Origin: Calditrichaceae bacterium
GTDB lineage: Bacteria > Calditrichota > Calditrichia > RBG-13-44-9 > J075
DNA length: 64,000 nt
Direction: 5' to 3'
NCBI GenBank assembly: GCA_013360445.1
Contig: JABWBP010000005.1
Span: 20,487-84,486 of the forward strand
Position 1 is the first letter of the stretch. Each line of letters begins with the position of its first letter. The translations under genes and the position numbers were made by a program. Positions 15,273-43,067 of the stretch are shown here, in pieces. The notes beneath the pieces are model-generated. The model did no database searches. It saw only the letters and a list, made by a program, of their open reading frames with translations, and had not been told where the DNA came from.

Positions 15273-15294
15273 GGGGGGATTGGGTATTACTTAA

Positions 15295-18839: not shown

Positions 18840-18841
18840 TT

Positions 18842-18859
18842 GGACGCTTCCCTGCGTCC
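18842..18859 (+). terminator. Short hairpin GGACGC-ttccct-GCGTCC immediately after the DUF2339 stop.
   Basis: 6-bp stem seen directly. There is no U-tract, so its role as an intrinsic terminator is uncertain. Confidence 0.25.
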
Positions 18860-18886
18860 CGGCGTTGTGGCGTTGTGGCGAATAAC

Positions 18887-18934
18887 CAATTTAATTCGCA
18901 ATTGGCAATTACCAATTGGCAATTGCCAATTTAA
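18887..18934. repeat. Palindromic CAATTG-heptamer array.
   Basis: ccaatttaattcgcaattggcaattaccaattggcaattgccaatttaaaag, in the convergent spacer before ftsZ. Confidence 0.65.
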
Positions 18935-18994
18935 AAGCCTTTCCCCGTCACACGGGCCGGCATCTCCAACCCGGCAATCTTCAATCGAAAATCC

Positions 18995-20164
18995 CTAATC
19001 CATCTGCTTGCGCAAAAAAGTGGGGATGTCCAGGTCGTCGATTTCCGAATCGAAAGTGATCCCGTCCGATTTCTGGATGAGGGGGCGGTTTTCCGCCGCT
19101 TCCTCGGTTTTTTTCCGTTTTTCCCGCAAGAAGGTCGGCAAATCCAGCACCCGGGGATTGACCTCCATGGGCTTGCTAACTTCCGGTTTGACCACCGCCC
19201 GTTCATCGGTATTGAAGCCGGTAGCGATCACGGTAATGAAAATTTCGTCGTTCAGATTTTCATCGATCACCGCCCCGAAGATCACGTTGGCGTCTTCCCC
19301 GGCTTCCTCGTAGATGATGGTGGTCGATTCGCTCACTTCGTAGAGGGACATCTGGCTGCCGCCGGTAATATTGACCAGCACGCCCCGGGCCCCGCGAATG
19401 GAAACTCCTTCCAACAGCGGGCTGGCGATGGCTTGCTGCGCCGCCTGCACCGCCTTGCCGTCGCCGCGGGAGTAGCCGGTTCCCATCAGCGCGTCACCCA
19501 TCTCCGCCATAATGGTGCGCACGTCCGCAAAATCCAGGTTGATCAGCCCCGGCACGGTAATCAGGTCGGAAATGCCCTTGGTGGCATGCAGCAGCACCTC
19601 ATCGGCCACTTTGAAGGCGTCTAACAGGGGGGTGGTTTTATCCACCACCGCGAACAACCGCTGGTTGGGGATCACGATGAGGGTATCCACGGCCTTGCGC
19701 ATTTCCTGAATGCCCTGTTCCGCCCGCTGCGACCGTTTCAGGCCCTCGAACGTGAAGGGCTTGGTCACGATCCCGACCGTCAGCGCCCCTAACTCTTTGG
19801 CCGCTTGCGCCACCACCGGCGCGGCCCCGGTGCCGGTTCCGCCGCCCATTCCCGCGGTCACGAACACCATGTCCGCCCCGGCCAGCGCCTTCTTCACCTC
19901 TTCATAATCTTCCTCGATGGCCTTGCGCCCGATCTCCGGATTGGCCCCGGCGCCCAGCCCGTGGGTGAGCTGCTTGCCGATTTGCACCTTGAACTGGGCG
20001 TGATTCTGCTCCAGCGCCTGGGAATCGGTGTTGATGGAAATGAAATCCACCCCGCTCAGGCCGGTTGTTACCATGGTGTTGATGGCATTGCCGCCGGCGC
20101 CGCCGACCCCGATTACCTTCAACTTCGCATTCAATTCCGCTCGTTCGTCAAACTCTATCGCCAT
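18995..20164 (-). CDS. ftsZ: Cell division protein FtsZ.
   Basis: [11 protein letters not shown], the tubulin signature [13 protein letters not shown], and the T7 loop region NLDFADV. Confidence 0.95.
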
Positions 20165-20218
20165 AACGCCTCCAGTTGGTTATAGTTGATCGCCTTCCTG
20201 GCGCCGCTTTTTTCAACA

Positions 20219-20316
20219 GGAGTGCAAAACTTTAGTTTTGCATTCCAGATGCGGTTTTTTTTGCTTCCGCAAAAAGTCGAAGATTACCCCAGTGCAAAAC
20301 TGAAGTTTTGCACTCC
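20219..20316. repeat. Two REP-like hairpins in the ftsA-ftsZ spacer.
   Basis: ggagtgcaaaactttagttttgcattcc and agtgcaaaactgaagttttgcactcc. Confidence 0.65.
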
Positions 20317-20320
20317 GAAT

Positions 20321-21553
20321 CTAAAAGAACCGCTTAAAAAACTGCCGGAAACTGCCTAACACGTCGTCCCACAAAACCCCGTGCTGGGGATTGGATAATA
20401 CGCCGTTCTGATGGTATAGCGGCCCGTAGAGGCACAATCCCACCGCGGTGCTGTAAATGGGGCTGCGCACGGAGTCGGTCAGCCCGCCTAAGGTTTTGGG
20501 AACTCCCAACCGCACCGGCATTCCCCAGATGTCTTCAGCCATTTTTGCAGTGCCCTCTAACAGCGCCGCGCCGCCGGTAATCACCGCGCCGGCGGCCATC
20601 AAATCTAACAGCTCTGATTTTTTCATTTTTTGGTGCACTAACGACAGGATTTCCTCCATGCGCGGGGCAATAATATCCACTAACACTGCCCGGGAGATGG
20701 TGCGCGGCAGCCGCCCTCCTACACCGGGCACGGTGATCGTATCCGCCTCGCTGATGCTGTCGCGCATGGCCGCACCGTATTTGATCTTGATCGCCTCGGC
20801 CTGCTCCGGGGGGGTGCGCAATCCCACCGCAATATCATTGGTGACGTGCTGCCCGCCTAAGGCCACCACGGAGGTATGCTGGATGTGCCCGTCGAAGAAC
20901 ATGGCGATGTCGCAAGTGCCGCCGCCGATGTCCACCAGCGCCACCCCTAACTGCCGCTCGTCGTCATCCAACACCGCGATGCTGGAGGCCAGCGGCTCCA
21001 GCACGATCTCTTCCACGTCGTAACCGGCGCGCTGCACGCTGCGCACGATGTTCTGCGCGGAAGTGACCGCGGCGGTAACGATGTGCACCTCTACCTCTAA
21101 GCGCACCCCGGACATGCCCACCGGGTCGGCGATGCCGTCCTGGTCGTCCACCAGGAATTCCTGGGGAATGACGTGGATGATTTCCCGGTCGATGGGAAGT
21201 GCCAGGGCTTTGGCGGCGTTGACAGCCCGCTCCACGTCTTCCTCGCTGATCTCGTGATCGTCGCGGGAGACGCCCACCATGCCCTTGCTGTTGATGCTGC
21301 GGATGTGGTCCCCGGCAATGCCCACAAAAACCGATTCCACCTGGATGCCGGCCATCGCTTCCGCCTCTTCCACGGCCGCCCGCACGGAATTGACGGTTTT
21401 ATCGATGTTTACCACCACTCCCTTGCGCAGCCCGTGAGAGGGGGAGCTGCCGATCCCCACGACGTTCAGCTTGCCGTCGGGGTCCTCTTTCACCACCACG
21501 GCGCAAATCTTGGTCGTGCCAATATCTAACCCGGTAATGAGTCTGCCTTCCAT
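20321..21553 (-). CDS. ftsA: Cell division protein FtsA.
   Basis: Actin-like ATPase motifs GLDIGTTKICAVV and VDIGGGTCDIAMF. Confidence 0.95.
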   Translation of the reverse strand: MEGRLITGLDIGTTKICAVVVKEDPDGKLNVVGIGSSPSHGLRKGVVVNIDKTVNSVRAAVEEAEAMAGIQVESVFVGIAGDHIRSINSKGMVGVSRDDHEISEEDVERAVNAAKALALPIDREIIHVIPQEFLVDDQDGIADPVGMSGVRLEVEVHIVTAAVTSAQNIVRSVQRAGYDVEEIVLEPLASSIAVLDDDERQLGVALVDIGGGTCDIAMFFDGHIQHTSVVALGGQHVTNDIAVGLRTPPEQAEAIKIKYGAAMRDSISEADTITVPGVGGRLPRTISRAVLVDIIAPRMEEILSLVHQKMKKSELLDLMAAGAVITGGAALLEGTAKMAEDIWGMPVRLGVPKTLGGLTDSVRSPIYSTAVGLCLYGPLYHQNGVLSNPQHGVLWDDVLGSFRQFFKRFF

Positions 21554-21625
21554 AACTGATCCTTTTGTGTGTCAGGGTCTCTGTTGCTTTGTTATTCTGC
21601 TTTGTTATTCCAAATCTGATTCTAT

Positions 21626-21733
21626 CGATGCTCGATGCTCGATACTCGATGCTCGATGCTCGATATAGATCAAATCCGCTGCCAGGTATCCGGCATCCGG
21701 CATCCAGCATCCAGTATCCAGCATCCGGCATCC
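21626..21733. repeat. ATGCTCG heptamer array (x5) followed by a CATCCRG heptamer array (x7). The two are partially complementary (GATGC/GCATC) and form a hairpin.
   Basis: cgatgctcgatgctcgatactcgatgctcgatgctcgata ... ggtatccggcatccggcatccagcatccagtatccagcatccggcatcc. Confidence 0.6.
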
Positions 21734-21739
21734 CAACTT

Positions 21740-22519
21740 TCACCCCTTTTTCCGCAAGACGATGCGCTCCTCAAAGGTGAGATCGATTTGCCGGATGGCC
21801 GGCAACTGGCCGACGACCGGCTCTTTTTCCAGCAACTGGCTGAGCAGGTAGAGACGCTGGTAATGCTTTTCCCGGCCAATCTTTACCCGCGCCGCGCCTT
21901 TTACTAAAATCAATTCCGGCTCGTGATTTTTCCCCAGGTTGATCTCGGAAATAAACGAAAAGAGATTGCGATCGACTTCGCGAATTTTTTGCACCACCCC
22001 GATGATCTCTTGCAGCGCTAAACTGTCTTTGGCCAACTCCCGGGCGGTTATGCCGGTCACCAGCGGGTATTTACTCATGGGCATGGAGGGCAATTTTTTG
22101 AGAATCACACCCTCTTCATCGACCATGTAGAGCGCCTTATCGGCCAGGTAGAAGACCGGCTCGCGCTCCTGCACGTTGATCAAAATCGTCGCCGGCATCA
22201 CCCGGGAGACGCTGACCCCACGGAAATAAGCGTTCTTCAGCAGCGTTTTGTTCAACTCCTCGACGTTAACCTTATACATGATTTGCGTGGTATCGATCTT
22301 AGCCGCCTTGCGGATCTCCTGCGTATCGATGAAACGGTTGCCGGTAATACGCACCGTTTCCGCCCGGAAAAGCGAGGTGCGGTACATCAGGTAATTGCTC
22401 CCGCGATAGACGCCATACCCCGCCAGCGCCAGCAATCCCAAAATCGCCACCAGTTTGGGGCTGGGATATAGCATTTTTGGCATCTGTTTATTTTTACGCT
22501 TCATAGCTTTTTCAAGCAC
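21740..22519 (-). CDS. ftsQ: Cell division protein FtsQ/DivIB (single TM helix plus POTRA domain).
   Basis: N-terminal TM helix LVAILGLLALAGYGVY, the POTRA pattern VRITGNRFIDTQEI, and cluster position. Confidence 0.85.
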   Translation of the reverse strand: MLEKAMKRKNKQMPKMLYPSPKLVAILGLLALAGYGVYRGSNYLMYRTSLFRAETVRITGNRFIDTQEIRKAAKIDTTQIMYKVNVEELNKTLLKNAYFRGVSVSRVMPATILINVQEREPVFYLADKALYMVDEEGVILKKLPSMPMSKYPLVTGITARELAKDSLALQEIIGVVQKIREVDRNLFSFISEINLGKNHEPELILVKGAARVKIGREKHYQRLYLLSQLLEKEPVVGQLPAIRQIDLTFEERIVLRKKG

Positions 22520-22612
22520 ACGGGTGTTTTAGTGCTCTGGTGTTCGAGTGTTATGCTGTGTCATTCTCAAAATTTACGAGAACACTCGGACACTAAAACA
22601 CTTGAACACATT
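22520..22612. repeat. GTGTT-word array followed by its AACAC-word complement.
   Basis: cacgggtgttttagtgctctggtgttcgagtgttatgctgtg ... gagaacactcggacactaaaacacttgaacac. Confidence 0.6.
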
Positions 22613-23559
22613 TACGGTTTTTCCACCCTTCGCTGATCTTCCTCCGAAAAACCCACTAACTTTACTTCCAATTCCAGCCACACCCCGGAGTGTTCGTACA
22701 CTTTGCGCTGCACCCGCCAGATCACTTCGTAAATGTCCCCCGCAGCGGCGTGGTTGAAGTTGACCACGAAGTTGGCGTGCTTGGGAGAGACCATCGCGCC
22801 TCCCACGGTAAATCCTTTGCACCCTGCCGCTTCGATCAGCCGCCCGGCGTAATCCCCGGGGGGGCGTTTGAACACGCTCCCGCAGGATGGATATTCCAAA
22901 GGCTGCTTCTCGGCGCGGCGTTTCAGGTAATCTTCCCGGGAGCGGCTCAATTGCTCCCGGTCTCCCGGCTCCAGGAACAGCCAGCAACCTAAGAGTATTT
23001 TGTTTTCCAGGCCGTCGGCGCGGCGGTAACCGAACTGCGCTTCCTCCCGGGGAAGCTGAACCCGGCGGCCCTTTTTATCCAGCGCGTCGATGCGCAGCAC
23101 CCGGTCGCCGATCTCGCCCACGAACGCCCCGGCGTTCATGCGAAGCGCTCCTCCCACGGTGCCGGGAATGCCGGACATGTAATCCAATCCTCCTAAGCTG
23201 TGCTTTTCGCAATATTCCACCAAATCCGCCACCGTTGCGCCGGCGCCCACGTAGAGCAACTCCCCCTCGTGAAACAACTGGCTGCAACAATGCTCTAACA
23301 GCACCACCACCCCCCGGAATCCCTCATCATGCACCAGCACGTTGGCGCCCTTTCCCATCACAAAATAAGGGACTCCTTCCCGGGTGCAGCAGCGAATGAT
23401 CTGCTCCAGCTCTTCCACCGTCGCGGGGGTTGCCAGAACATCTGCCTTACCGCCCACCTGGTAACTGGTCAGCGGCGCCAGGGGCGCATCCAGACGGCAG
23501 CTATCCGGGTATTCCCGTTTCAGCCGCTGGATGGTCTTTTTGATCTTCTCCGAGTTCAA
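22612..23559 (-). CDS. murB: UDP-N-acetylenolpyruvoylglucosamine reductase.
   Basis: FAD-binding domain GGKADVLATPATVEEL, a C-terminal MurB domain, and a TTG start. Confidence 0.9.
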   Translation of the reverse strand: MNSEKIKKTIQRLKREYPDSCRLDAPLAPLTSYQVGGKADVLATPATVEELEQIIRCCTREGVPYFVMGKGANVLVHDEGFRGVVVLLEHCCSQLFHEGELLYVGAGATVADLVEYCEKHSLGGLDYMSGIPGTVGGALRMNAGAFVGEIGDRVLRIDALDKKGRRVQLPREEAQFGYRRADGLENKILLGCWLFLEPGDREQLSRSREDYLKRRAEKQPLEYPSCGSVFKRPPGDYAGRLIEAAGCKGFTVGGAMVSPKHANFVVNFNHAAAGDIYEVIWRVQRKVYEHSGVWLELEVKLVGFSEEDQRRVEKP

Positions 23560-23561
23560 GG

Positions 23562-23588
23562 TTCAATCTTCAATTTTCAATCTTCACT
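23562..23588. repeat. TTCAATC heptamer x3 in the 24-nt murC-murB gap.
   Basis: ttcaatcttcaattttcaatcttcac. Confidence 0.5.
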
Positions 23589-24963
23589 TCTTTCCCAGCT
23601 TTTCCGCCAATTCATTGGCGCACTTCCAGACGTCGCCGGCGCCGATGGTGATGACCATATCGCCGGGCTGCAGAAGCGGGAACACTTCCCCGGCCAATTT
23701 GCGCTTGTCTTCCACGTAGAGCACTTGCTTGTGCCCCATGGTGCGGGCGGTATCGGCGATGAGTCTGCCGCTGACGCCCTCGAGGGGTTTCTCCCGCGCC
23801 GGGTAAACGTCGGTGACCACCAGGATATCCGCGTCGAAAAAGGAGCGGGCAAACTCTTTGTAAAAATCCCGGGTGCGGGAATACAGGTGCGGCTGGAATA
23901 CCGCGATGATGCGTTTTTCCGGCCAGCTGCTGCGCGCCCCTTGCAGGGTGGTCAGGATTTCCGCGGGATGATGGCCGTAATCATCCACCACCATGATGTC
24001 GTTTACCTGCGCCTTGACCTCGAAGCGGCGGCTGATCCCGGAAAATCCTTCCAGGGCTTTTTGAATGGTCGCAAAGGGAACTTCTAACTCCAATCCCACG
24101 GCAATGGAAGCCAGGGCGTTCTGAATATTGTGCCTGCCGGTCAAATTCAGCTTGACGCGGCCCAGCAATTCGCCCTCGTGGAAGGCGTCGAACTCCGTTC
24201 CGTAAGGCAAAAAATGCAGGTTGCGGGCGGTAAAATCCGCCTGGCTGCTGAAGCCGTAGCTGATCACGGTGCGCTTCAAGGCGTGGAGGATTTCCTGCAC
24301 CCCGGGATTATCCAGGCAGGCGATCACCTTCCCGTAAAAGGGAACCTTGTTGGCAAAGGCAATGAAAGCGTTTTTCAGATCCTCCAGGTCCTTGTAGCAG
24401 TCTAAGTGATCGGTGTCCACGTTGGTAATCACCGCAATGGTCGGGATCATGGAAAGGAAGCTGCGGTCGAATTCATCCGCTTCCGCCACCAGGAACTCTC
24501 CCCTCCCTAACTTGGCGTTGGTGTCCAGGGAGCGAACCTTGCCGCCGATGATCAGGGTGGGGTCCAGCCCGCCCTCGGTCAGCGCCGCCCCGATCAGCGA
24601 CGTGGTGGTGGTTTTCCCGTGGGTTCCGGCCACGGCGATGCCGTATTTCAGGCGAATCAGCTCGCCCAACATCTCCGCGCGTTTGATCACCGGAATCTTG
24701 CGCCGCAGCGCTTCCTGCACTTCTAAGTTATCCGCGTTGACCGCAGAGGAGTAGATCAGCACCTCCGCGTCCTGCACGTTCTCCGCCCGGTGGCCTTCGC
24801 TAATCCGCGCGCCCATGGCGGCGAGCTTGTGGGTAAGTTCGGAAAGCTGGGTGTCCGAACCGCTCACCTGGTAGCCGAGGTTCAGCAGCAGCTCCGCAAT
24901 GCCGCTCATGCCGATCCCGCCGATCCCGACGAAGTGAATTTTGTGAATTTTGCCTAAGCGCAT
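23584..24963 (-). CDS. murC: UDP-N-acetylmuramate--L-alanine ligase.
   Basis: IHFVGIGGIGMSGIA, the Mur ligase P-loop GTHGKTTTT. Confidence 0.95.
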   Translation of the reverse strand: MRLGKIHKIHFVGIGGIGMSGIAELLLNLGYQVSGSDTQLSELTHKLAAMGARISEGHRAENVQDAEVLIYSSAVNADNLEVQEALRRKIPVIKRAEMLGELIRLKYGIAVAGTHGKTTTTSLIGAALTEGGLDPTLIIGGKVRSLDTNAKLGRGEFLVAEADEFDRSFLSMIPTIAVITNVDTDHLDCYKDLEDLKNAFIAFANKVPFYGKVIACLDNPGVQEILHALKRTVISYGFSSQADFTARNLHFLPYGTEFDAFHEGELLGRVKLNLTGRHNIQNALASIAVGLELEVPFATIQKALEGFSGISRRFEVKAQVNDIMVVDDYGHHPAEILTTLQGARSSWPEKRIIAVFQPHLYSRTRDFYKEFARSFFDADILVVTDVYPAREKPLEGVSGRLIADTARTMGHKQVLYVEDKRKLAGEVFPLLQPGDMVITIGAGDVWKCANELAEKLGKK

Positions 24964-25003
24964 TCTGTTTTTCCGGTGATTATGTTTTTATCCACCCGTT
25001 TTT

Positions 25004-25125
25004 CAGTAGGCAGTAGGCAGTTGGCAGTAGGCAAAAGAAACTGCGCTTCTGCCGCTTTTCACTGCAAAACTGAAGTTTTGCACTCCGGTTATTGCTTACT
25101 GCCTACTGCCTACTTGCCTACTGCT
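25004..25125. repeat. Nested element: a GTAGGCA-heptamer array, then a REP-like hairpin, then the TGCCTAC complement array.
   Basis: cagtaggcagtaggcagttggcagtaggcaa ... ctgcaaaactgaagttttgcactcc ... ttgcttactgcctactgcctacttgcctactgc. The right arm overlaps the murG stop. Confidence 0.65.
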
Positions 25126-26221
25126 TTTCCAGCAGTTTCAATATCTCCTCGCCAATCTGCTCCGCGGCGCGGGGGCGGGCCAATGTTTTCCAGGCCGCGC
25201 TCTGCCGCTGCCGCAGAGATTCATCGCTCAACAGGGTTTCCAATGCCTGCTGCAATTCCTTTTCCCAGCCCGTTTTTTCCGTGACCATCAGGGCCGCCCC
25301 GGCTTCCGCGACCATGCGGCTGTTGTGCTCCTGGTGATTTCCCGCCGCGAAGGGATAGGGCACTAACACGGCCGGCCTGGCGACTGCGGCCAGCTCCGCC
25401 AGGGTGATCGCCCCGGCGCGGCATACGACCACGTCTGCCGCGGCGTAAGCCGCCTCCATCTCCTGAATGTAGGGCAGAATGCGCACCCTTTCATCGGCGC
25501 TTTGAAATCCCTTCACCACTGTCTGGAACTGGCTTTCCCCGGCCTGCCAGATCACCTGCATGGGGTATTTCTTCAGCAATTCCGGGAGAATGCCGCTCAT
25601 GGCGTTGTTGATGGAGCGCGCTCCCTGGCTGCCGCCGAATATGAGCAAGGTGATTTTATCCGGCTCCAGCCCCATTTTTTCCCGCCCGGCCTGCCGGGTA
25701 ACGCCGCCCAGGGTCTCCCGAACCGGGTTGCCGGTGACCACCAATTTATCCGCATACTGCGAAAAATACCGCCGCGCCGCTTCGAAAGAGAGGCAGATGC
25801 GCCGCGCGTATTTGGCCAGCAGCCGGGTGGTGACGCCGGGGTACACGTCCTGCTCCTGGATGAGCACCGGCACGCCCATTTTCGCCGCAGCGTAGAGCGC
25901 CGGGCCGCTCACGTAGCCGCCGGTTCCCACCGCCGCGTGGGGCGCAAACCGCTTCACGATTTTCCGGCTTTGATACAGACCGATGAGCAGCTTCGCCGGG
26001 AATAGCAGGTTTTTTAGGTTGAAGCTGCGCGCGAATCCCGAAATCAGGATGGTTTCCAGGGGAACGCCGTAACGGGGCACAATCCGGGTTTCGATCCCGT
26101 TTTTGCCCCCCACGTAAAGGAACCGGAAATCGCCCTTGCGTTTCAGCGCTTCGATAGTCGCCAGCGCCGGGTACACGTGCCCGCCGGTTCCGCCCCCGGC
26201 AATCAAGATTCGCTTTTCCAT
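25118..26221 (-). CDS. murG: Lipid II synthase MurG (undecaprenyldiphospho-muramoylpentapeptide beta-N-acetylglucosaminyltransferase).
   Basis: ILIAGGGTGGHVYPALA, the GT-B fold, and cluster position. Confidence 0.95.
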   Translation of the reverse strand: MEKRILIAGGGTGGHVYPALATIEALKRKGDFRFLYVGGKNGIETRIVPRYGVPLETILISGFARSFNLKNLLFPAKLLIGLYQSRKIVKRFAPHAAVGTGGYVSGPALYAAAKMGVPVLIQEQDVYPGVTTRLLAKYARRICLSFEAARRYFSQYADKLVVTGNPVRETLGGVTRQAGREKMGLEPDKITLLIFGGSQGARSINNAMSGILPELLKKYPMQVIWQAGESQFQTVVKGFQSADERVRILPYIQEMEAAYAAADVVVCRAGAITLAELAAVARPAVLVPYPFAAGNHQEHNSRMVAEAGAALMVTEKTGWEKELQQALETLLSDESLRQRQSAAWKTLARPRAAEQIGEEILKLLEKQ

Positions 26222-26240
26222 TCACATTCACTATTCGCTA

Positions 26241-26525
26241 CCCTTCGACAAGCTCAGGGCAAGTTTCATCATTCTCAGTTCACTATTCACAATTCCCCGT
26301 TCACCATTCCCCTTCACCGCACCTTTTTCACCCCCGCCCGGCTGCGGGTTCGGCGACGAACCGGCAGATGAACCCCTTCATGCGGCAGCGGGGCGGCAAC
26401 CGCCGGGATAAACGCCATGCTTTTTAGCTTGATCTTGATTTTCATTTTCATCTTCATACCACACCATCCTTTCCAGGAATCCTTTTCCCTTCTCACTTCT
26501 CACCCTTCGACAAGCTCAGGGCAAG
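26241..26525. repeat. 309-bp spacer bounded by perfect 23-bp direct repeats CCCTTCGACAAGCTCAGGGCAAG (26241-26263 and 26503-26525). The interior holds TTCACTATTC / TCACTTCTCAC word runs.
   Basis: Exact repeat found by eye about 262 bp apart. It lies between murG and ftsW inside the dcw operon. Confidence 0.6.
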
Positions 26526-26529
26526 CTTC

Positions 26530-27711: not shown

Positions 27712-27727
27712 CTTCTTCACTGTACGG

Positions 27728-27772
27728 GAGGCGGAGCCTCCACGGTGGCGATCCGACGCAGAGCGTCGGATC
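27728..27772. repeat. Two adjacent perfect hairpins, GGAGGC-gga-GCCTCC and GATCCGACGC-agag-GCGTCGGATC, in the murD-ftsW spacer.
   Basis: 6-bp and 10-bp perfect stems seen directly. Confidence 0.55.
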
Positions 27773-27800
27773 GAGCAAAACGTAGTGGATTCTTCTACCC

Positions 27801-29207: not shown

Positions 29208-29221
29208 CGCATCCTTGAAGA

Positions 29222-29336
29222 ATTGAAAAGTGCTAAATGAAAAGTGAAAATTGCGCAGGAGATTATCCCTTTCGCTCTCTTCCCTTTACACTTCACACTT
29301 TACACTTTTCATTTTGCATTTTTCACTTTGCACTTC
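29222..29336. repeat. GTGAAAA-word array followed by the TTTTCAC/ACTTTNC complement array (hairpin).
   Basis: ttgaaaagtgctaaatgaaaagtgaaaattgcgcagg ... ctttacacttcacactttacacttttcattttgcatttttcactttgcacttc. Confidence 0.6.
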
Positions 29337-30445: not shown

Positions 30446-30461
30446 ATTTTTACCTGTTTTT

Positions 30462-30528
30462 GGGTGTTCGAGTTTTCATGTGTTCATGTTACTCGAACAC
30501 ACGAGCACTTGAACACCATAACACTCAA
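30462..30528. repeat. GTGTT-word hairpin with almost no loop.
   Basis: gggtgttcgagttttcatgtgttcatgttactcgaacacacgagcacttgaacaccataacactc. Confidence 0.6.
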
Positions 30529-31898
30529 AAAGCCTCCAAAACTTTTTCCATTTTCATCCCCCGCGACCCTTTCAGCAGCACCACGTCGTGAGGCTGCAAA
30601 ACTTGTTGTAAATGCGCGGCGATCTCTTCATGGGTTCGGTAATGGAACGCTCGCTTACCCCTGCCGGCCTTTTCTTCGAAGCCTTGCAGAATAAAACCGG
30701 AGAGCGGTCCGTAGAGCAGCGCCAGGTCCACCGGCTTCTCGGCCAGGAATTCTCCTAACCGGCGATGCTCGGTTTCGGCGAATTCGCCTAATTCTAACAT
30801 GTCTCCTAACACCGCGATCCGTTTTCCCCGCCCGTTTCGCAGTCCGGCCAGGTAGTTCAGGGCCGCGCGCATGGAATCCGGGTTGGCGTTGTAGGCGTCG
30901 TTAATGAACACGATGCCGTTTTTCTCGATGATCTCCATGCGCTGCTTTGCCGGGGCAAAATTTTCCAGCGCTTGCGCCGCCTCGCTCTCCGAAACGCCGT
31001 ACTGCAGCCCCACCGCCGCGGCTAACAGGGCGTTGAGCACCTGGTGCGTTCCGGGAACCTTCAGTTGAATGGAGACTGCGTCGTTCAGGCGGAATCTCAC
31101 CCGCCCGTAGCGGTCGATGAACTCCACCCTGCCGCGCACGTCGTTGCCGGAATTATATCCCACGGTAATCGCCTTGCGCCCGGCGCGGGGATAATTCCGC
31201 AAAAAGCGGTCTTCCATGTTCAAAAAGATGGGGGCCGAAGGCTCCAGGGCCTCGAACAGGGAAATTTTTTCCCGGTAAATGGCCTCCAGACTGCCCATGA
31301 ACCCGAGGTGCGCCTTCCCGACGTTGGTCACCAGGGCGGCGGTGGGTTTTGCCAGGCCGGCCAGCAGGGCGATCTCCCCGGGGTGATTCATGCCCATTTC
31401 CAGCACCGCCATCTCGGTCTGCTCGCCCAGTTGCAGGAGCATCAGGGGCAACCCGATGTGGTTGTTCTTGTTCCCCTGCGACTGAAAGACCCGGAAACGG
31501 GTCGCCAGCACCGCGGCGATCATCTCCCGGGTAGTGGTTTTGCCATTGGAGCCGGTGAGGCCGACCACTTCGATGTCAAATTGCCGCCGGCGCCAGGCGG
31601 CCAACTGCTGCAAAAAGTCCAGACTGTCTCCCACCACGATGAGCGGGCCTTGGGAGAACGCTTGCGCCGCGCGGTTTTTCTCCCACCATTTTTTCTCCAC
31701 CACAACGGCGGCAGCGCCCTTTTCCAGCGCCGCGGCGATATAGTCGTGCCCGTCGTGCGCCTCGCCCCGCAGGGCCAGGAACAATTCTCCCGGCTGCAAG
31801 CTGCGGCTGTCGATGGACAGGCGTCGCTCATCCGCCGCTTCCGCGTTCCCGCTCACCGATTGCAGACCGCGATATTCTTTCAAAAACTCCCCGATCAT
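30525..31898 (-). CDS. murF: UDP-N-acetylmuramoyl-tripeptide--D-alanyl-D-alanine ligase.
   Basis: LTGSNGKTTT P-loop and Mur ligase domain order. Confidence 0.9.
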   Translation of the reverse strand: MIGEFLKEYRGLQSVSGNAEAADERRLSIDSRSLQPGELFLALRGEAHDGHDYIAAALEKGAAAVVVEKKWWEKNRAAQAFSQGPLIVVGDSLDFLQQLAAWRRRQFDIEVVGLTGSNGKTTTREMIAAVLATRFRVFQSQGNKNNHIGLPLMLLQLGEQTEMAVLEMGMNHPGEIALLAGLAKPTAALVTNVGKAHLGFMGSLEAIYREKISLFEALEPSAPIFLNMEDRFLRNYPRAGRKAITVGYNSGNDVRGRVEFIDRYGRVRFRLNDAVSIQLKVPGTHQVLNALLAAAVGLQYGVSESEAAQALENFAPAKQRMEIIEKNGIVFINDAYNANPDSMRAALNYLAGLRNGRGKRIAVLGDMLELGEFAETEHRRLGEFLAEKPVDLALLYGPLSGFILQGFEEKAGRGKRAFHYRTHEEIAAHLQQVLQPHDVVLLKGSRGMKMEKVLEAF

Positions 31899-31920
31899 GG
31901 CTCACCGCGCTCAACCCGGT

Positions 31921-31944
31921 CGAAGTAATTTTTAATTGCCAATT
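31921..31944. repeat. CAATTG heptamer array (short copy).
   Basis: tttttaattgccaattgccaatta. Confidence 0.55.
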
Positions 31945-32040
31945 GCCAATTATCTCCCCCGCAGACCCTTTCCGACCCCCTCCCGAAGGCATCCCCACCG
32001 TGCGGGTTGACAGGAGAGGGTCAGAAAAGGACGGGAAGTT

Positions 32041-32094
32041 AGTGTTTGAGTGTTTTCGTAACTAAAACACCTGAACACTATAACACATGAACAC
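32041..32094. repeat. GTGTT-word array with its AACAC complement.
   Basis: agtgtttgagtgttttcgtaactaaaacacctgaacactataacacatgaacac. Confidence 0.6.
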
Positions 32095-32095
32095 T

Positions 32096-33553
32096 TTACG
32101 CCTCCTTCGCTAAAAACTGCTTCACCACCTCATGGTCGTCGAAGTGGACTTTTTTACCGGCAAATTCCTGGTAGGTCTCGTGCCCCTTTCCGGCAATCAG
32201 GATGATCTCATTCTTTCGCGCCTGCTTCAGCGCGGTTTCGATGGCGGCGCGGCGATCCGGGATCACCTGCACTTTGGCGCGGTCGTAAATGCCGCTTTGA
32301 ATCTGCTCCAAAATCTTTTCCGGATCTTCGCCGCGGGGATTGTCGTTGGTCAAAATCACCCGGTCGGCGTAATCCTCGGCGATTTTCCCCATGCGGGGGC
32401 GTTTTTCCGCGTCGCGCTCGCCCCCGCAGCCGAATACCACGGTGAGGCGGGGAGGCTTGAATTCCAACAGCGCTTCCAACATCCGCTGCAGCGCGTCCGG
32501 GGAGTGGGCGTAGTCGATATAGACCCGGTATCCCCGGGCGGAGAGATATTTCTCGCTGCGCCCGGGAACCCGGCGAAGCTTTTCGATCCCCCGGGTGATG
32601 TATTCTTCCAACAATCCTAAGGAGATCGCCGCAGTCGCGGCGGCCATCAGATTGTAAATATTGAACCGCCCTACCAGCGCGCTGCTGAAGAACATCTCCC
32701 CGGAAGGCGTCGCCAGGGTTACGAACATGCCCTCGGAAAGCAGCTGGTAGGATTTCAGCCGCACCGTCGCTTCGGGATCGGAAAACGAATAGGTAAACGC
32801 ATCGCCTTTGCTGCTTTGCAGGATGCGCCGGCTGTAAGGATCATCCAGGTTGACCACCGCGCGGTCGTTCTCCTGCAAATTGTCAAAGAGTTTTTTTTTC
32901 GCTAAGAAGTATTTCTCCATGGTTTTGTGAAAATCCAGGTGGTCATGCCCTAAATTGGTGAACACCGCCGCCCGAAAAGGCACGCCGTCGGTGCGGTGCA
33001 GCGCCAGGGCGTGGGAAGAGACCTCCATCACCACGCTCTTGTGCCCCTGGCGGTGCATATCGTAAAAGGTGCGGTGCAAATCCAGCGACTCCGGGGTGGT
33101 GCGCTCCGAAGGGGTGCGCTGCTCCCCGATAACCGTCTCCACGGTGCTGATCAACCCCGGCTTCCAGCTTGCCTCCCGCAAAATCGAGTGCAGCAGGTAG
33201 GCGGTGGTGGTTTTGCCGTTAGTGCCGGTAATTCCCACGATTTTCAATTCCTCAACCGCGTTTTCGTAAAAATTGCGGGCGATGAAGGGCAGCCAGCGCC
33301 GGGTATCCTTCACCTGCACGATCACCGCGCCTTCGATGGCGGGCATCTCTTCCACGATGAACGCCCGGCAGCCCCGCTCATACACCTGTTGAATAAAGCG
33401 ATGCCCGTCCTGCCGCAGCCCGCGAATGGCGATAAAAATATCCTCCTTTGCTACTTTGCGGGAATCGTACTGAATATCCCGCACGATGGTAGAGAGGTCT
33501 CCCCGCGCGCTGATCACCGGCAGATCTCCCATGATTTCGGAGATGCGTTTCAT
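32096..33553 (-). CDS. murE: UDP-N-acetylmuramoyl-L-alanyl-D-glutamate--2,6-diaminopimelate ligase (meso-DAP type; DNPR motif present).
   Basis: GITGTNGKTTT; the DNPR motif (TNDNPRGED) indicates DAP specificity. Confidence 0.95.
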   Translation of the reverse strand: MKRISEIMGDLPVISARGDLSTIVRDIQYDSRKVAKEDIFIAIRGLRQDGHRFIQQVYERGCRAFIVEEMPAIEGAVIVQVKDTRRWLPFIARNFYENAVEELKIVGITGTNGKTTTAYLLHSILREASWKPGLISTVETVIGEQRTPSERTTPESLDLHRTFYDMHRQGHKSVVMEVSSHALALHRTDGVPFRAAVFTNLGHDHLDFHKTMEKYFLAKKKLFDNLQENDRAVVNLDDPYSRRILQSSKGDAFTYSFSDPEATVRLKSYQLLSEGMFVTLATPSGEMFFSSALVGRFNIYNLMAAATAAISLGLLEEYITRGIEKLRRVPGRSEKYLSARGYRVYIDYAHSPDALQRMLEALLEFKPPRLTVVFGCGGERDAEKRPRMGKIAEDYADRVILTNDNPRGEDPEKILEQIQSGIYDRAKVQVIPDRRAAIETALKQARKNEIILIAGKGHETYQEFAGKKVHFDDHEVVKQFLAKEA

Positions 33554-35724
33554 GTCGGGTTACACACTAATTTTATTTTGGTGTTATGCTGCATCCTTTG
33601 CCCGGCGCCCGGCAACTGTCTTACCACCACCCCGCTGCCCTCTACCTCCACGGGTATATTCCAGGTGGAGAGCACTTGCAGCGCCTCCTTCAAGGTAAGG
33701 CCGGTTACCCGGGGCATCAGCGCGCGCCGGGGATCGCCCGCGGCATCGGTAAACAAACGCACTTTTTCCTTCCCGTTCAAGGGGGTGTATGCCGAAGGCT
33801 CCTGGCGATAGACCGTCTCCCCCTTGCCGACGATCTCGTATTCGACATCCTTCTTCTTCAGCATCCGGGAGGCTTTATTGACCGCCAGCCCCTCCAGGGC
33901 CGGCATCACATTTTTCACTTCCGGAAAATCTGCCCGGGCGTAAACCACGCTGGCAGATTTCTTCTCTTCCGGCTCCCCCGGCCGGTCCCATTGGGGCAGG
34001 TCATTTTGAGGCAGGCCGATGATCCGCTGGGCAATATTGCGAAAGGCCGGCGCCGCCACCTGGCTGCCGTAGTAACCGAGGCGCGGGTTATTGATCACCA
34101 CCAGCAGCACGAAGCGGGGCGCTTCCACGGGGAAGAATCCCACGAAGGAAGCGATGTGGCTGTTGGATGAAAAGGTATTGGTATTGCGATCCAGTCTCTG
34201 GGCGGTGCCGGTTTTACCGGCAATGCTGATGCCCTCGATGCGGGCGTTTTTCCCGGTTCCGTTTTCTACCACTCCTTGAAGGATGGTTTTCATCTGCCGG
34301 GCGGTCTCCGGGGAAACGACCTCGCGGATCGGCCGGGGGCGATACTCTTTATGTTCTTTCCCTTTAGAATCCACTACCCGGCGCACCAGGTAGGGCTGCA
34401 TCAACCGGCCGTCATTGGCGACCGCGGCGTAGGCGCTGGCAATCTGCAGGGGCGTCACCGCCACCTCGTATCCGATGCTCATAAATGAAAGGGAGTGGCG
34501 GGAGTATTCCGCCGGTTTGTGCAAAATGCCCCCGGCTTCCGCGGGCAGGTCGATGCCGGCGGGCGCCCCGAAGCCGAAATCCCGGGCGTAGCGGTAAAAT
34601 AGCGGCGCTTTGAACCGTTTGGAAAGCTTGATCACCCCGATATTGCTGGAATTTTCGAATACCTGCCGGGCGGTCAAGTTCCCGAAGCGATGGTGGTCTT
34701 TAATAACCTTTTGTGCTATGGGGTAGGAACCGTTTTCACAATAGATGATTTCGTTTTGCATATCTAAATGCAACTGTTCTAAGCACAGGGCCAGGGAAAC
34801 CATCTTGAAGGTCGAGCCAGGCTCGTACAGATCGGTGATGGCGCGGTTGAGGTAACGCTCCATGGAGTAGCGGTTGTACTCGTTGGGATTATAGCCCGGG
34901 TAGTTGGCCATTCCCAGTACTTCCCCGGTAAGCGGGTTCATTAAAATGGCCGACCCGCTGCCGGCCTGGTGGGCCTCCACCGCTTTTTTGACCTCCTCAT
35001 CCAAAATCCCCTGGTACACCACGTCGATGGTGGTTTCGAGGTGCATTCCGTTCACCGGTTCGGAGGCGGCAAAGTCCAGGTTGGGGAACTGGTTGCCCAG
35101 GGCGTCGCGCAGGTAGATCGACCAGCCGGGAGTTCCTTTGAGAAATTCGTCGTAGCCCATTTCCAGCCCGGCTTTGGCGTGGTTGTCGAAATCGCAGTAG
35201 CCGAGCAGGTGCGCCCCGGTCTGGCCGTAAGGGTAGTAGCGGCTGAATTTTTTCTCCAGGATGACTCCCTGCAGTTTGAGCGCCCGGATTTTCTCCGCCG
35301 TCTCCGGCGTCAAACGGTGCGCGAGGTACACGAACGGCTTGCTGGTTCGCACCTTTTGCAGCACGCTGTTGCGCGACTGCTGGATGAAGTCGGCAATTTT
35401 CCGGGCGTTGCTCTCCGGATTCTTCAGCAATTTGGGGCGAACCGCCAGGGAATAATAGATCAAATCCGTGGCCAACACCTGGCCGTTGCGGTCCAGGATA
35501 TTTCCCCGCTGCGCCGGCAGCACCAGGCGATTTTCCATTTGCCCTTTGGCAATTTTTTCATACTTCCCGTGGGAAAAAACCTGAATGATGGCCAGCTTGA
35601 TCACCACCAGCGACAAGCCCAATACCCAAAAAATCCCTAACACCACCAGGCGGTGATGAGGGAGCGGGGGGGAAGATTTTGGCCGGGCGGCTTTATTGAT
35701 CCGCCTGCCGGTCTTTTCCAACAT
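33550..35724 (-). CDS. ftsI: Penicillin-binding protein FtsI (class B transpeptidase) with two C-terminal PASTA domains.
   Basis: SXXK motif (GSTFK), SXN and KTG motifs. There are two C-terminal ~55-aa repeats matching the PASTA pattern (MPALEGL...LVCNPT). Confidence 0.9.
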   Translation of the reverse strand: MLEKTGRRINKAARPKSSPPLPHHRLVVLGIFWVLGLSLVVIKLAIIQVFSHGKYEKIAKGQMENRLVLPAQRGNILDRNGQVLATDLIYYSLAVRPKLLKNPESNARKIADFIQQSRNSVLQKVRTSKPFVYLAHRLTPETAEKIRALKLQGVILEKKFSRYYPYGQTGAHLLGYCDFDNHAKAGLEMGYDEFLKGTPGWSIYLRDALGNQFPNLDFAASEPVNGMHLETTIDVVYQGILDEEVKKAVEAHQAGSGSAILMNPLTGEVLGMANYPGYNPNEYNRYSMERYLNRAITDLYEPGSTFKMVSLALCLEQLHLDMQNEIIYCENGSYPIAQKVIKDHHRFGNLTARQVFENSSNIGVIKLSKRFKAPLFYRYARDFGFGAPAGIDLPAEAGGILHKPAEYSRHSLSFMSIGYEVAVTPLQIASAYAAVANDGRLMQPYLVRRVVDSKGKEHKEYRPRPIREVVSPETARQMKTILQGVVENGTGKNARIEGISIAGKTGTAQRLDRNTNTFSSNSHIASFVGFFPVEAPRFVLLVVINNPRLGYYGSQVAAPAFRNIAQRIIGLPQNDLPQWDRPGEPEEKKSASVVYARADFPEVKNVMPALEGLAVNKASRMLKKKDVEYEIVGKGETVYRQEPSAYTPLNGKEKVRLFTDAAGDPRRALMPRVTGLTLKEALQVLSTWNIPVEVEGSGVVVRQLPGAGQRMQHNTKIKLVCNPT

Positions 35725-36211
35725 AGTAGCGCCAGCTTTTTTTATCGACTTTAAAGATCAACGGTTCTTCAACTGTAGGCTTCAAGCCTAATTTTTCACC
35801 GGAGATTTGCGCCACCCGGTGATACTTGGTCAACTGGGAATTGACCTGCGCCTGGCGGCGGCTTACTTCGCTCTCCAGCCGCAGGACTTCCGATTTCAAT
35901 TTTTGAATATCCTTGTTGAACTCAACGATCTTATACTCTTTCCACTGGTAGAGTAAAAACGCCAGACTGAGCAGGATCAGCGCCAAAAAAACCGTTACCA
36001 CGTAAAGCGCCTGCTGCACCCCCTGTTTGAGATAATAAGCATTTCGCCCGGCCCGGGCGGGGGAGCGCCGCTGTTTTTCCACGGTTTTTTTCCGGGGCGG
36101 TTCCGGCCGTTTCGGCTCCCGTAGAACTTTGGATTTGCCCGGGACGGCTTTGGGCGCATTTTTAGCGCGAGGGCGTTTCACGTTACTCCTGGCCCTCCCG
36201 GTAAGGTACAA
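35693..36211 (-). CDS. ftsL: Cell division protein FtsL-like (single TM helix plus coiled coil), with a basic N-terminal extension.
   Basis: TM helix LYVVTVFLALILLSLAFLLY followed by the heptad region IQKLKSEVLRLESEVSRRQAQV. It sits between rsmH and ftsI. Confidence 0.7.
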   Translation of the reverse strand: MYLTGRARSNVKRPRAKNAPKAVPGKSKVLREPKRPEPPRKKTVEKQRRSPARAGRNAYYLKQGVQQALYVVTVFLALILLSLAFLLYQWKEYKIVEFNKDIQKLKSEVLRLESEVSRRQAQVNSQLTKYHRVAQISGEKLGLKPTVEEPLIFKVDKKSWRYYVGKDRQADQ

Positions 36212-37133
36212 TCTTCTCCGCCGCCCGCAGTTTGGCGCTGCGCGCCCGGGGATTGGCGCGGATTTCCTCCTCGTCCGGCGACAGGGGCCGGCGGGTTAAA
36301 ATTTCCAGTTCCCGAACCTTGTTGCAAACGCAGGCGGGCAGCTCCGGGGGGCAAACACAGCTCTGGTATTTTTCCCGGAAAAATTCTTTGACGATGCGGT
36401 CTTCTAAGGAATGATAACTGATCACCACCAGCCTCCCCCCTTGCTTCAATACCTGGAAAGCCGCCTCCAGCGAGGCGCGCAGGCGCTCCAGCTCCCGGTT
36501 CACTTCGATCCGGATCGCCTGGAACACCCGCGCCAGGGATTTATTCAAGAAGCGCTCGCCTACTACCGAGCGCACGACTGCCGCCAGATCGCCGGCGGTG
36601 CGAAATTCCGCGGTTTCCCGGCGGCGGGAAATTTCCCGGGCAATGGCCCGCCAGTGCCGCTCTTCCCCGAATTCCCGGATAATTCGCCCGAGATCCTCTT
36701 GCGAATAACCGTTCAGCACTACGGCTGCGGTAACTTTCTGCCGCGGATCAAAGCGCATATCCAGAGGCCCCTCGCTTTGGTAACTGAACCCGCGGCGCTC
36801 TTCATCCACCTGGAAAGAAGAAATTCCCAGGTCGTAGAGAACGCCGTCCACCGGATGCTTCCCGGCTTCGTGCAATACCACTTCCAACTGATCGAAAAAA
36901 GCCTGTTGCAGGTACTTGTTGGAGAAGCGGCTCAATCTTTGTGCGGCATATTCTATGGCTTCAGGGTCGGCGTCGATTCCGATTAAAAACGCGCGGGGAG
37001 AAGTCCGTTCTAAAATAGCGTAACCATGGCCGCCGCCCCCAAGCGTGCAATCAACATATACTCCTTCCTGATTATGAACCAGGTACTCTATCGCCAGCTT
37101 TGCCAGCGCCGGCTGGTGAAATCCCTTTTCCAT
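36183..37133 (-). CDS. rsmH: 16S rRNA (cytosine1402-N4)-methyltransferase.
   Basis: VDCTLGGGGH, IGIDADPEA, DLGISSFQVD. Start at MEKGF; the track ORF extends further upstream. Confidence 0.9.
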   Translation of the reverse strand: MEKGFHQPALAKLAIEYLVHNQEGVYVDCTLGGGGHGYAILERTSPRAFLIGIDADPEAIEYAAQRLSRFSNKYLQQAFFDQLEVVLHEAGKHPVDGVLYDLGISSFQVDEERRGFSYQSEGPLDMRFDPRQKVTAAVVLNGYSQEDLGRIIREFGEERHWRAIAREISRRRETAEFRTAGDLAAVVRSVVGERFLNKSLARVFQAIRIEVNRELERLRASLEAAFQVLKQGGRLVVISYHSLEDRIVKEFFREKYQSCVCPPELPACVCNKVRELEILTRRPLSPDEEEIRANPRARSAKLRAAEKIVPYREGQE

Positions 37134-37152
37134 ACCTGCGATCCCTGCAAGG

Positions 37153-37593
37153 TTAGATATCCAGGTCCCGAACGATATTCTGGTAATCCGTTTCGGTCGC
37201 CTCCACAAATTGCTGGTATTTGTCCGGGTTCCAAATTTCGAGTTTGTTCTGGTAGCCAACGATCAGAATTTCACTGTCCAGGTTGGCGTATTCGATCAAA
37301 TCGGCGCTGAGGTTCAAACGCCCCTGTTTGTCGATCTTTTGCTCCCCGGCCTGGTACATCAACCGCCGGGAGATCAGCCCGAACTCCCGCTCCGTTTGCA
37401 CCTTTCGCCGGATGTCTTCGATTAAGTAACGCCAGGAGGTAAGGGGGTACACGCTAATGCAGGGATGGGTTCCGCGAACCAACATGAGGGTATCTTCATC
37501 TTCCGGCTGAAGATTCCTGCGAAACCTGGCGGGGAAATTAATTCGCCCCTTGTTATCCAGAGTGCTGTTGACGCTGCCCCAAAATCCGTTCAT
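37153..37593 (-). CDS. mraZ: Transcriptional regulator MraZ.
   Basis: Duplicated MraZ fold. The N-terminus is MNGFWGSVNSTLDNKGRINFP (the canonical DxKGR motif), which is the likely start at 37593. Confidence 0.85.
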   Translation of the reverse strand: MNGFWGSVNSTLDNKGRINFPARFRRNLQPEDEDTLMLVRGTHPCISVYPLTSWRYLIEDIRRKVQTEREFGLISRRLMYQAGEQKIDKQGRLNLSADLIEYANLDSEILIVGYQNKLEIWNPDKYQQFVEATETDYQNIVRDLDI

Positions 37594-39463: not shown

Positions 39464-39574
39464 GTTTCAGGTTTTGAGTTTCGAGTTTGGCGCATGGCGC
39501 ATAGAGCATAGGGCATAGCGGGGCAGTTCCGTCTTATCCTTGCGCTTTGCACTCTGCGCTCTGCGCCATGCGCC
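39464..39574. repeat. GAGTTTC heptamer x3, then a GCGCAT-word array with its ATGCGC-word complement (hairpin).
   Basis: ggttttgagtttcgagtttgg cgcatggcgcatagagcatagggcatagcg ... cgctttgcactctgcgctctgcgccatgcgcc. Confidence 0.6.
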
Positions 39575-43064: not shown

Positions 43065-43067
43065 CTC

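Follow-up and report, generated by a model that had tools for sequence, protein, structure and literature searches.

Why should the division and cell wall (dcw) cluster of a Calditrichaceae bacterium be opened, at its junctions from murE to ftsZ, by spacers that fold into hairpins? The cluster lies in a stretch of 64,000 nucleotides (positions 20,487 to 84,486 of contig JABWBP010000005.1, assembly GCA_013360445.1), here called the window, and an earlier note on this DNA had read the hairpins as determinants of processing or stability, or as attenuators, that tune the Mur proteins against the Fts proteins. The analysis favours a different answer, to which we give a probability of about 0.6: the dcw spacers are filled by genome-wide, fast-evolving repeat hairpins and not by signals designed for the operon, and segmentation of the transcript is a side effect. 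The hairpins belong with known classes of intergenic repeats, namely heptameric intergenic repeats and repetitive extragenic palindromic (REP) elements. In a single Calditrichota lineage of genus level they have invaded, or multiplied in, the spaces between genes, and whole units are gained and lost, presumably through slippage or unequal exchange. Three types of element would make up the spacers: inverted tandem arrays of 7- or 8-nt units, a 22-nt REP-like palindrome, and small inserts such as a 23-nt repeat.

The spacers between murE and ftsZ

The window, with a G+C content of about 56%, carries a complete dcw cluster on its minus strand (18995-37593), in the order mraZ-rsmH-ftsL-ftsI-murE-murF-mraY-murD-ftsW-murG-murC-murB-ftsQ-ftsA-ftsZ. 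The map of open reading frames (ORFs) was built with the contrast between G+C at third and at second codon positions (GC3-GC2) and then curated by hand, start codons included. The genes ftsZ, ftsA, ftsQ, murB, murC, murG, ftsW, murD, mraY and murF were named via NCBIfam equivalog models, and murE, ftsI, ftsL, rsmH and mraZ from the ORF map and the translations. With the curated starts the spacer lengths of the earlier note were reproduced: murE-murF 197 nt, murF-mraY 79, mraY-murD 128, murD-ftsW 89, ftsW-murG 308, murG-murC 154, murC-murB 24, murB-ftsQ 107 (92 if the longest ftsQ ORF is taken), ftsQ-ftsA 186 and ftsA-ftsZ 156 nt. The tight packing described from mraZ to murE was also found, with 19 nt between mraZ and rsmH, about 1 nt at the next junction, an overlap of 32 nt between ftsL and ftsI and one of 4 nt between ftsI and murE. 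The ftsL start is a GTG placed 3 nt past the rsmH stop, and its frame is free of indels and conserved in L001, a close relative. The same spacers are present in 9-10 independent assemblies from other sequencing runs, so that they are not assembly artefacts.

The folding of each spacer was scored against 200 dinucleotide-preserving shuffles, with ten length-matched coding stretches as controls. Eight of the ten spacers fold beyond their shuffles (sense-strand z -2.8 to -6.9), whereas the controls range from -1.7 to +1.5. A hairpin had been claimed for every junction, and this holds for all except murC-murB, which does not fold, and ftsW-murG (z +0.5). The further claim of a different hairpin at each junction holds only in part, as one octamer family, GTGTTNNN, serves three junctions and one 22-nt palindrome serves two. 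Most stems consist of two complementary arms, in each of which units of 7 or 8 nt follow one another in tandem. According to the unit tables, each unit joins an invariant core of 4-5 nt to 2-3 variable positions with a consensus of only 40-60% (for example GTGTT+NNN, AAGT+NNN, CGTAA+NN, AATT+NNC and GGAT+NNN), and at least eight unrelated cores coexist (GTGTT, AAGT, CGTAA, AATT, GGAT, GTAGG, GCGCAT and TGG).

The junctions, all on the minus strand, can be described by the kind of element that they hold. The GTGTTNNN array hairpin fills most of the murF-mraY spacer (30446-30524; arms 30495-30523 and 30455-30485; z -5.6) and of the murB-ftsQ spacer (22505-22611; arms 22566-22609 and 22521-22560; z -5.2). 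It also forms the first of three modules in the murE-murF spacer (31899-32095; z -5.4 sense, -2.0 antisense), where the array hairpin at 32040-32095 is joined by a GC-rich hairpin (31952-32040) and a short AATTGGC array (31934-31951). Heptamers build three other stems. In the ftsQ-ftsA spacer (21554-21739; z -6.9) the arrays are inverted, seven GGATGCY units in the sense 5' arm (21688-21736) facing five to six GCATCGA units in the 3' arm (21625-21665), and the stem has 6 bp and one mismatch per heptad. The murG-murC spacer (24964-25117; z -6.9) pairs GTAGGCA with TGCCTAC (arms 25087-25117 and 25004-25036) around a loop that holds one REP-like palindrome (25062-25083), while in the mraY-murD spacer (29208-29335; z -2.8 sense, -4.0 antisense) an AAGTGNA array forms the sense 5' arm (29284-29335) and the complementary array the 3' arm (29217-29250).

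The ftsA-ftsZ spacer (20165-20320; z -5.0 sense, -7.4 antisense) is built from two REP-like palindromes of the type GTGCAAAACTNNAGTTTTGCAC (20222-20243 and 20292-20313), which have opposite loop orientation and jointly form one long stem; the final ~60 nt ahead of ftsZ, GGAGG included, are conserved in L001. Arrays are absent from the stems of the murD-ftsW spacer (27712-27800; z -3.8), which has two plain GC-rich hairpins (27750-27772 and 27727-27741), and the murC-murB spacer (23560-23583) consists of three direct heptamers, AGATTGA AAATTGA AGATTGA, with no hairpin and a minimum free energy (MFE) of 0.

The ftsW-murG spacer (26222-26529) is a composite with no overall hairpin. Two identical 23-nt copies of CTTGCCCTGAGCTTGTCGAAGGG (26241-26263 and 26503-26525), missing from L001, flank its core, which is GC-rich and conserved, and direct heptamer arrays rich in G are present as well. 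The strand opposite to the 23-nt copies reads PFDKLRA, a motif met in spurious ORFs of many phyla. The core further contains an ORF of 47 codons (26314-26457; MKMKMKIKIKLKSMAFIPAVAAPLPHEGVHLPVRRRTRSRAGVKKVR) whose N-terminus is encoded by the heptamer array. The length of this ORF is unchanged in L001, with five synonymous and three non-synonymous codon changes, and in two clusters of 74-77% identity; no homologues of it were found outside this lineage.

The same elements in the window, among strains and in relatives

In the window TRF (Tandem Repeats Finder) gave, after merging, 35 arrays with a period of 7 or 8, and the 22-nt palindrome GTGCAAAACTNNAGTTTTGCAC has nine copies with at most two mismatches where none is expected by chance. 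The copies lie mostly in pairs with oppositely oriented loops; three belong to the dcw cluster, two in ftsA-ftsZ and one in the stem loop of murG-murC. The raw sliding-window MFE told little, as coding DNA of high G+C itself folds strongly, and it was replaced by a GC-regressed score together with dinucleotide-shuffle z-scores. After GC correction, z of -3 or lower was reached by 14% of the intergenic 100-nt segments as against 0.3% of the fully coding ones, and 15 structure-outlier loci lay outside the dcw cluster. Of the 35 intergenic gaps that measure 40 bp or more, about 23 hold array or palindrome elements by our own count (8/9 in the dcw cluster, 15/26 in the rest of the window; Fisher p = 0.12). 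The elements are therefore not specific to dcw, since the same ones occur in about two thirds of the intergenic gaps of the window, and they were found in gaps between co-directional genes as well as in divergent (14192-14426) and convergent (18840-18994) ones.

The earlier note had extended its pattern to the lpx, skp and bamA genes. This was borne out between lpxA and lpxC-fabZ, where a GGCGCAT-type heptamer-array hairpin is located (39489-39574, minus strand), between lpxD and skp and between skp and bamA; the junction of lpxC-fabZ and lpxD has only a short array (TTTTCAC, 3.4 copies) and a small hairpin. Further hairpin loci outside the dcw cluster lie at 6058-6192, 12048-12166, 14245-14334, 15292-15368, 42207-42338 and 42955-43066, REP-like copies at 16428-16489, 52630-52761 and 54649-54814, and AATTGGC arrays at 18893-18931, 49765-49811, 52686-52725 and 60429-60467. 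The arrays are confined to non-coding DNA, the seeming cases within ORFs being due to over-called starts at 16428, 39552, 49691 and 60431. The longest-ORF starts of a DUF2339 protein (16428), of lpxA (39552) and of proteins of 1415 aa (49691) and 810 aa (60431) enter palindromes or arrays, and the real starts of these four genes probably lie further downstream; public gene calls share the over-called start of the DUF2339 protein.

Two other features of the window may be recorded here. Its strongest local structure (58964-59049, plus strand; GC-corrected z -8.4) is a hairpin located in a gap of 475 nt between plus-strand genes, with the C-rich side first and the G-rich side second, which is the reverse of the array polarity described below. 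A stretch of low G+C (2958-5781; 0.42-0.50, GC3 ~0.45) contains two long ORFs of 505 and 424 aa without Pfam hits and was probably acquired horizontally.

Strain variants were obtained by exact-protein look-ups with FtsZ and MraY; in addition, a MurG scan of metagenome contigs yielded one locus, 29% identical, and no close relatives. Strains with identical FtsZ or MraY differ in their spacers by whole units of 7, 14, 16 or 21 nt. The ftsQ-ftsA spacer has alleles of 186, 165 and 144 nt, with arms that vary independently by 7, 14 or 21 nt; murG-murC has alleles of 147, 154 and 161 nt, mraY-murD of 128 and 135 nt, and murF-mraY of 79 and 95 nt, which are two octamers apart. Moreover, a comparison with L083 and L089 shows that the loop of the ftsA-ftsZ palindrome at 20222-20243 is inverted between strains, CTAAAG in some and CTTTAG in others, and this exchange of TAAA for TTTA indicates that the template was switched within one DNA strand while it was folded. 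Strains whose stems vary by entire units, in an operon that is essential and sensitive to dosage, amount to a natural experiment. Four independent Logan contigs (L083-L086) all end 93 bp downstream of ftsZ, in the region of the AATTGGC array at 18893-18931, and the repeats appear to break short-read assemblies.

The closest genomes are those of uncultured Calditrichaceae, with L001 having a MurD 93% identical to that of the window and more distant Calditrichia 46-59%. The ten junctions from murE to ftsZ total 1428 nt here and 165-738 nt in six other Calditrichia with full coverage, with a median of 141 nt as against 7-52 nt. The dcw genes and their order are unchanged in these more distant genomes, except that murB was not detected in three, and 27 of their 28 spacers of at least 45 nt have z above -2; in L001 six of eight spacers are strongly structured (z -3.8 to -9.2). 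Relatives with compact dcw clusters thus lack such spacers, an observation that the earlier note had itself named as the first half of what would count against its reading. As the spacers are compact or unstructured in other Calditrichia and structured here and in L001, they are a recent acquisition of one lineage. The density of 7/8-mer arrays per 10 kb follows the same division: it is 5.5 for the window and 6.1 for L001, as against 0-2.4 for other Calditrichia. Unrelated loci of Nitrospinota, Nitrospira and Omnitrophota, with inverted heptamer arrays at their dcw junctions too, also reach high densities, and the element type therefore recurs in other phyla.

Identity to L001 at four-fold degenerate sites is 0.869, and against this background some junctions have been replaced and others kept. 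The murG-murC spacer has GTAGGCA arrays and a palindrome here and a GTGTTC-type array in L001, the GTGTTNNN array of murB-ftsQ corresponds in L001 to a CGTATTN-array hairpin, and the murF-mraY spacer of L001 has 125 nt and a different loop. On the other hand, 23 of the 24 nt of murC-murB and 85 of the 89 nt of murD-ftsW are identical (p = 0.007 for the latter against four-fold sites), and conservation extends to the leader segments that immediately precede ftsZ, murF and murD. An extra insertion of 62 nt with two hairpins is present in the murD-ftsW spacer of L001 and L002. The contig L002 (WYBG01000153.1) is labelled 'Deltaproteobacteria bacterium', and yet has a MurD 95% identical to that of the window besides this shared insertion; it probably belongs to Calditrichaceae and has been mis-binned or mislabelled.

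Probable transcription through the spacers and the rival explanations

No hairpin followed by a T-tract on the transcribed (minus) strand was found in any dcw spacer, though canonical stem and T-tract terminators exist elsewhere in the window (2205-2184 and 57960-57975). This rules out intrinsic terminators and attenuators as a reading of the stems, and the simplest assumption is that transcription continues through them into polycistronic RNA. The earlier note was in this respect well founded, as the hairpins lie on the sense side of a co-directional string of genes and would be carried in its RNA; its suggestion of an attenuator before ftsZ found no mark in the ftsA-ftsZ spacer. Since the stems have no T-tract and each downstream gene has its own conserved leader, transcription probably reads through, and each stem would become an imperfect duplex of 25-55 bp within the dcw RNA. 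If these duplexes behave like REP elements and like the intervening sequences (IVS) of 23S rRNA, they would be barriers to 3' exonucleases, partial stops for transcription or targets of RNase III. They would thus divide the long mRNA into segments, as a side effect that varies by strain and not as a tuned stoichiometry of Mur and Fts. Any effect on Mur versus Fts levels is thus most likely a by-product that differs between strains.

Several observations weigh against this interpretation. Conservation in some spacer cores slightly exceeds that of four-fold sites (p = 0.007 to 0.03), and the window and L001 both have a hairpin of some sort at 8/9 junctions, including those where one sequence has taken the place of another, which could mean that there is selection for having a stem, beyond mere tolerance. 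The G-rich array is the 5' arm in 15 of the 15 array hairpins of the window (p = 6e-5), a polarity that holds on both strands because the elements are palindromic, and the G-rich array comes first in 30 of 35 array pairs over all loci, other phyla included; three of the five exceptions belong to the CACCAGN family of the Nitrospinota locus L050. Neither units with an invariant core nor this 15/15 polarity is predicted by neutral slippage and decay, and together they point to constraint or to a dedicated generating mechanism. A possible reason for the polarity is that, were the C-rich arm transcribed first, a Rho-loading site would lie exposed until the partner arm had been made. Finally, read-through, cleavage and stabilisation are each something that we infer.

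A dedicated generating mechanism could be sought in a cassette found elsewhere in the window (9521-10190, plus strand), in which a gene for a 23S-rRNA-IVS protein, a four-helix bundle of family PF05635 (S23p), lies within array hairpins. The ORF (9657-10058, plus strand) runs in the opposite direction to the adjacent genes and is low in GC3, and the sole relative in PDB by sequence is XCC0516 of Xanthomonas (2GSC). It is bracketed by AAGTNNN heptamer-array hairpins at 9521-9611 and 10056-10190, and the left G-rich arm is predicted to pair with the right C-rich arm with -65 kcal/mol. Homologues that are 61-77% identical come from bins that include KSB1 and Anaerolineae. In all seven homologue loci examined (L101, L103, L105, L107, L109, L110 and L111) the gene lies between an upstream G-rich 7/8-mer array and a complementary downstream C-rich array, whose duplex has z of -3 to -11. 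Arrays are present at 14/14 PF05635 flanks as against 1/9 other junctions of the same loci (p = 1.8e-5), and all copies of the cassette sit between protein-coding housekeeping genes, outside rRNA. A tblastn search of the S23p protein against 80 dcw loci gave no hits, and no literature was found that links this family outside rRNA to heptamer arrays. In locus L112 (1853-4975) a string of reverse transcriptase (RT), S23p (PF05635), Cas1 and Cas2 genes has AAGTNNN/ACTTCTC array hairpins at every junction; this locus also carries ACCGTTTA arrays, reminiscent of the C. abyssi palindrome AAACCGTT..AACGGTTT.

Judging by the shared architecture and polarity and by partly shared unit sequence, the ORF-less dcw stems would be members of the same element family as the cassette. 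Processing by RNase III is made plausible by analogy, because the same architecture brackets a 23S-rRNA-IVS-protein gene here and in seven homologues. Carried to its end, this becomes a tentative proposal that we regard as possible but rather less probable than not: the array hairpins would be ORF-less relatives of an undescribed mobile S23p cassette, built like a 23S rRNA IVS but inserted between ordinary genes in several phyla, each dcw junction would hold an empty IVS stem whose excision by RNase III would divide the polycistronic RNA into gene-sized pieces, and the S23p protein or the mechanism by which the cassette spreads would generate the heptad arrays and the G-first polarity. The bracket of heptad arrays around four-helix-bundle genes in unrelated genomes is in any case a lead on the origin of IVS and on the over-representation of heptamers in some bacteria.

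The reading of the earlier note, in which the hairpins are dedicated determinants of processing or stability (sites for RNase III or RNase E, barriers to exonucleases, or attenuators) that set Mur against Fts levels, seems to us unlikely. It would account for significant stems at 8/10 junctions, for their persistence at L001 junctions despite replacement of the sequence and, in the absence of T-tracts, for stems that lie within the RNA; moreover, heptamer-bearing IVS stems of Coxiella are indeed cut by RNase III (PMC4990558). Against it stand the presence of the same elements in gaps of every orientation across the window, their absence from other Calditrichia with the same dcw genes and order, stems whose length is polymorphic among near-identical strains and two junctions whose arrays were replaced in L001. 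Nor is there an overall bias towards the sense strand, which is more stable than the antisense strand in 7 of 19 co-directional hairpins (Wilcoxon p = 0.49), with 81 G-U pairs in sense and 90 in antisense; the ftsA-ftsZ stem is in fact more stable on the antisense strand. Overall there is no mark of selection on the transcript. A search of Rfam at E <= 1 returned only three sub-threshold matches to miRNA-precursor models, which are generic long hairpins.

An exception, which speaks for a dedicated signal, is the GC-rich hairpin of murE-murF (31952-32040, minus strand). It is sense-specific (-51.7 kcal/mol in sense, -31.6 in antisense), has one compensatory change from A-U to G-C relative to L001, and is invariant in nine strain contigs; the entire spacer has 14 G-U pairs in the sense fold and 4 in the antisense fold. 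No further copies of the GC-rich spacer cores were found, and these cores are single-copy. This hairpin and those of murD-ftsW may be locus-specific RNA elements amid the repeats. For the array and palindrome stems, repeats that spread through the genome remain our preferred explanation, and it is advisable that intergenic hairpins in an essential operon be checked against the rest of the genome and close relatives before they are read as regulatory design.

It is improbable that the cluster is no longer one operon and that the spacers hold unrecognised pairs of terminators and promoters from which most late dcw genes are transcribed separately. Spacers of 80-300 nt have room for promoters, the conserved leaders of ftsZ, murF and murD would suit such an arrangement, and REP elements can be partial Rho-dependent terminators (bioRxiv 10.64898/2026.03.23.713779). 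Nevertheless, the scan for promoters, which covered the sigma-70 consensus only in a phylum whose promoter types are uncharacterised, gave a total of 9 sites against a shuffled expectation of 7.9, with one weak sense-strand site in the spacers; terminator-like sites, too, were as many as shuffled sequence would give. The genome uses T-tract terminators elsewhere and not here, and arrays that are freely replaced and resized are hard to square with a fixed promoter spacing.

We consider it equally doubtful that the arrays act on DNA, as periodic sites for nucleoid or repair proteins, as cruciforms or as gyrase sites, distributed along the chromosome as has been proposed for clusters of REP and bacterial interspersed mosaic elements (BIME). 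Both strands fold equally well, so that these are palindromes of DNA and not of RNA only; an invariant core of 4-5 nt at a fixed period of 7-8 nt resembles a repeated binding site, elements are also present in divergent and convergent gaps, and the loop inversion shows that hairpins form in DNA. One binding protein, however, cannot account for at least eight unrelated coexisting cores, and no candidate for such a protein was identified. Three other candidates can be rejected in brief: DNA uptake sequences (DUS) of the Neisseria type, as eight DUS dialects, their 10-mer core and two uptake signal sequence (USS) motifs are all absent from the window; miniature inverted-repeat transposable elements (MITEs), as loci of the same family share arrays alone, with unrelated loops and flanks, single-copy spacer cores, no conserved interior and no target-site duplications; and CRISPR, as the units abut without spacers.

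Comparison with known systems

Of the published repeats the heptameric ones are nearest to these arrays. Heptamers have been described in Xanthomonas (GGGAATC), in Nostoc (GGGGAYT) and as the short tandemly repeated repetitive (STRR) sequences of cyanobacteria, with convergent inverted pairs and variation between close relatives (PMC4692102, Rehm et al. 2015), and TAACTGA repeats are known from Beggiatoaceae (MacGregor 2015, PMC4679880). Like these simple sequence repeats (SSR) and STRR, the arrays of the window consist of tandem 7-nt units (here also 8-nt units), are intergenic only, occur in gaps within operons too (as between pecE and pecF in Nostoc), and vary in copy number among close strains and relatives; the function of the published repeats is unknown. 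The convergent, G-rich-first arrangement of the inverted pairs is shared with the heptamers of Xanthomonas (PMC4692102). The differences lie in the pairing of most arrays into long hairpins, the published ones being mostly lone direct repeats, and in units made of a core and variable bases instead of near-perfect copies, so that the near-identity expected from slippage only is not seen. In addition, many unrelated unit families are found here, 8-nt units are common and the host belongs to Calditrichota.

The 22-nt palindrome can be compared with the REP elements and BIMEs of enterobacteria and pseudomonads. It is likewise short, conserved and imperfect, with nine copies in 64 kb that are extragenic, often form oppositely oriented pairs and lie within operons as well, and its positions also differ between relatives. 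The REP effects known, protection of mRNA 3' ends and partial termination, are of the type that the earlier note proposed; REP elements have been described as acting both as terminators and as stabilisers, at positions that are not the same in all strains, with partial Rho-dependent termination possible (bioRxiv 10.64898/2026.03.23.713779). The sequence of the palindrome is unrelated to theirs, and unrelated also to the C. abyssi palindrome aAACCGTTgaAACGGTTt (PMC5317091). No Y1 transposase was present among the window proteins checked with Pfam, a check that included no search aimed at REP-associated tyrosine transposases (RAYT).

The 23S rRNA IVS of Coxiella, Leptospira and Xanthomonas (PMC4990558) share with the S23p cassette of the window and its seven homologous loci a long inverted-repeat stem, an optional PF05635 ORF in the loop and strain-variable tandem heptamers, which in the IVS are at the base of the stem; in Coxiella the strain-variable heptamer repeats lie at the RNase III cut site (PMC4990558). 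They differ in position, being inserted in helix 25 or 45 of 23S rRNA and not between protein-coding genes. The dcw stems have the long stem but no ORF, their kinship with the cassettes is putative, and cutting by RNase III would apply to them by analogy.

For the dcw cluster itself the parallel is with Neisseria, where the gaps are reportedly enlarged and occupied by pairs of DUS and by Correia elements (Snyder, Shafer and Saunders 2003, cited in PMC3184786). The repeats differ, since Neisseria has uptake sequences or MITEs where this lineage has hairpins made of tandem arrays. In both, the junctions of the dcw cluster have been widened by genome-wide repeats that form stem-loops.

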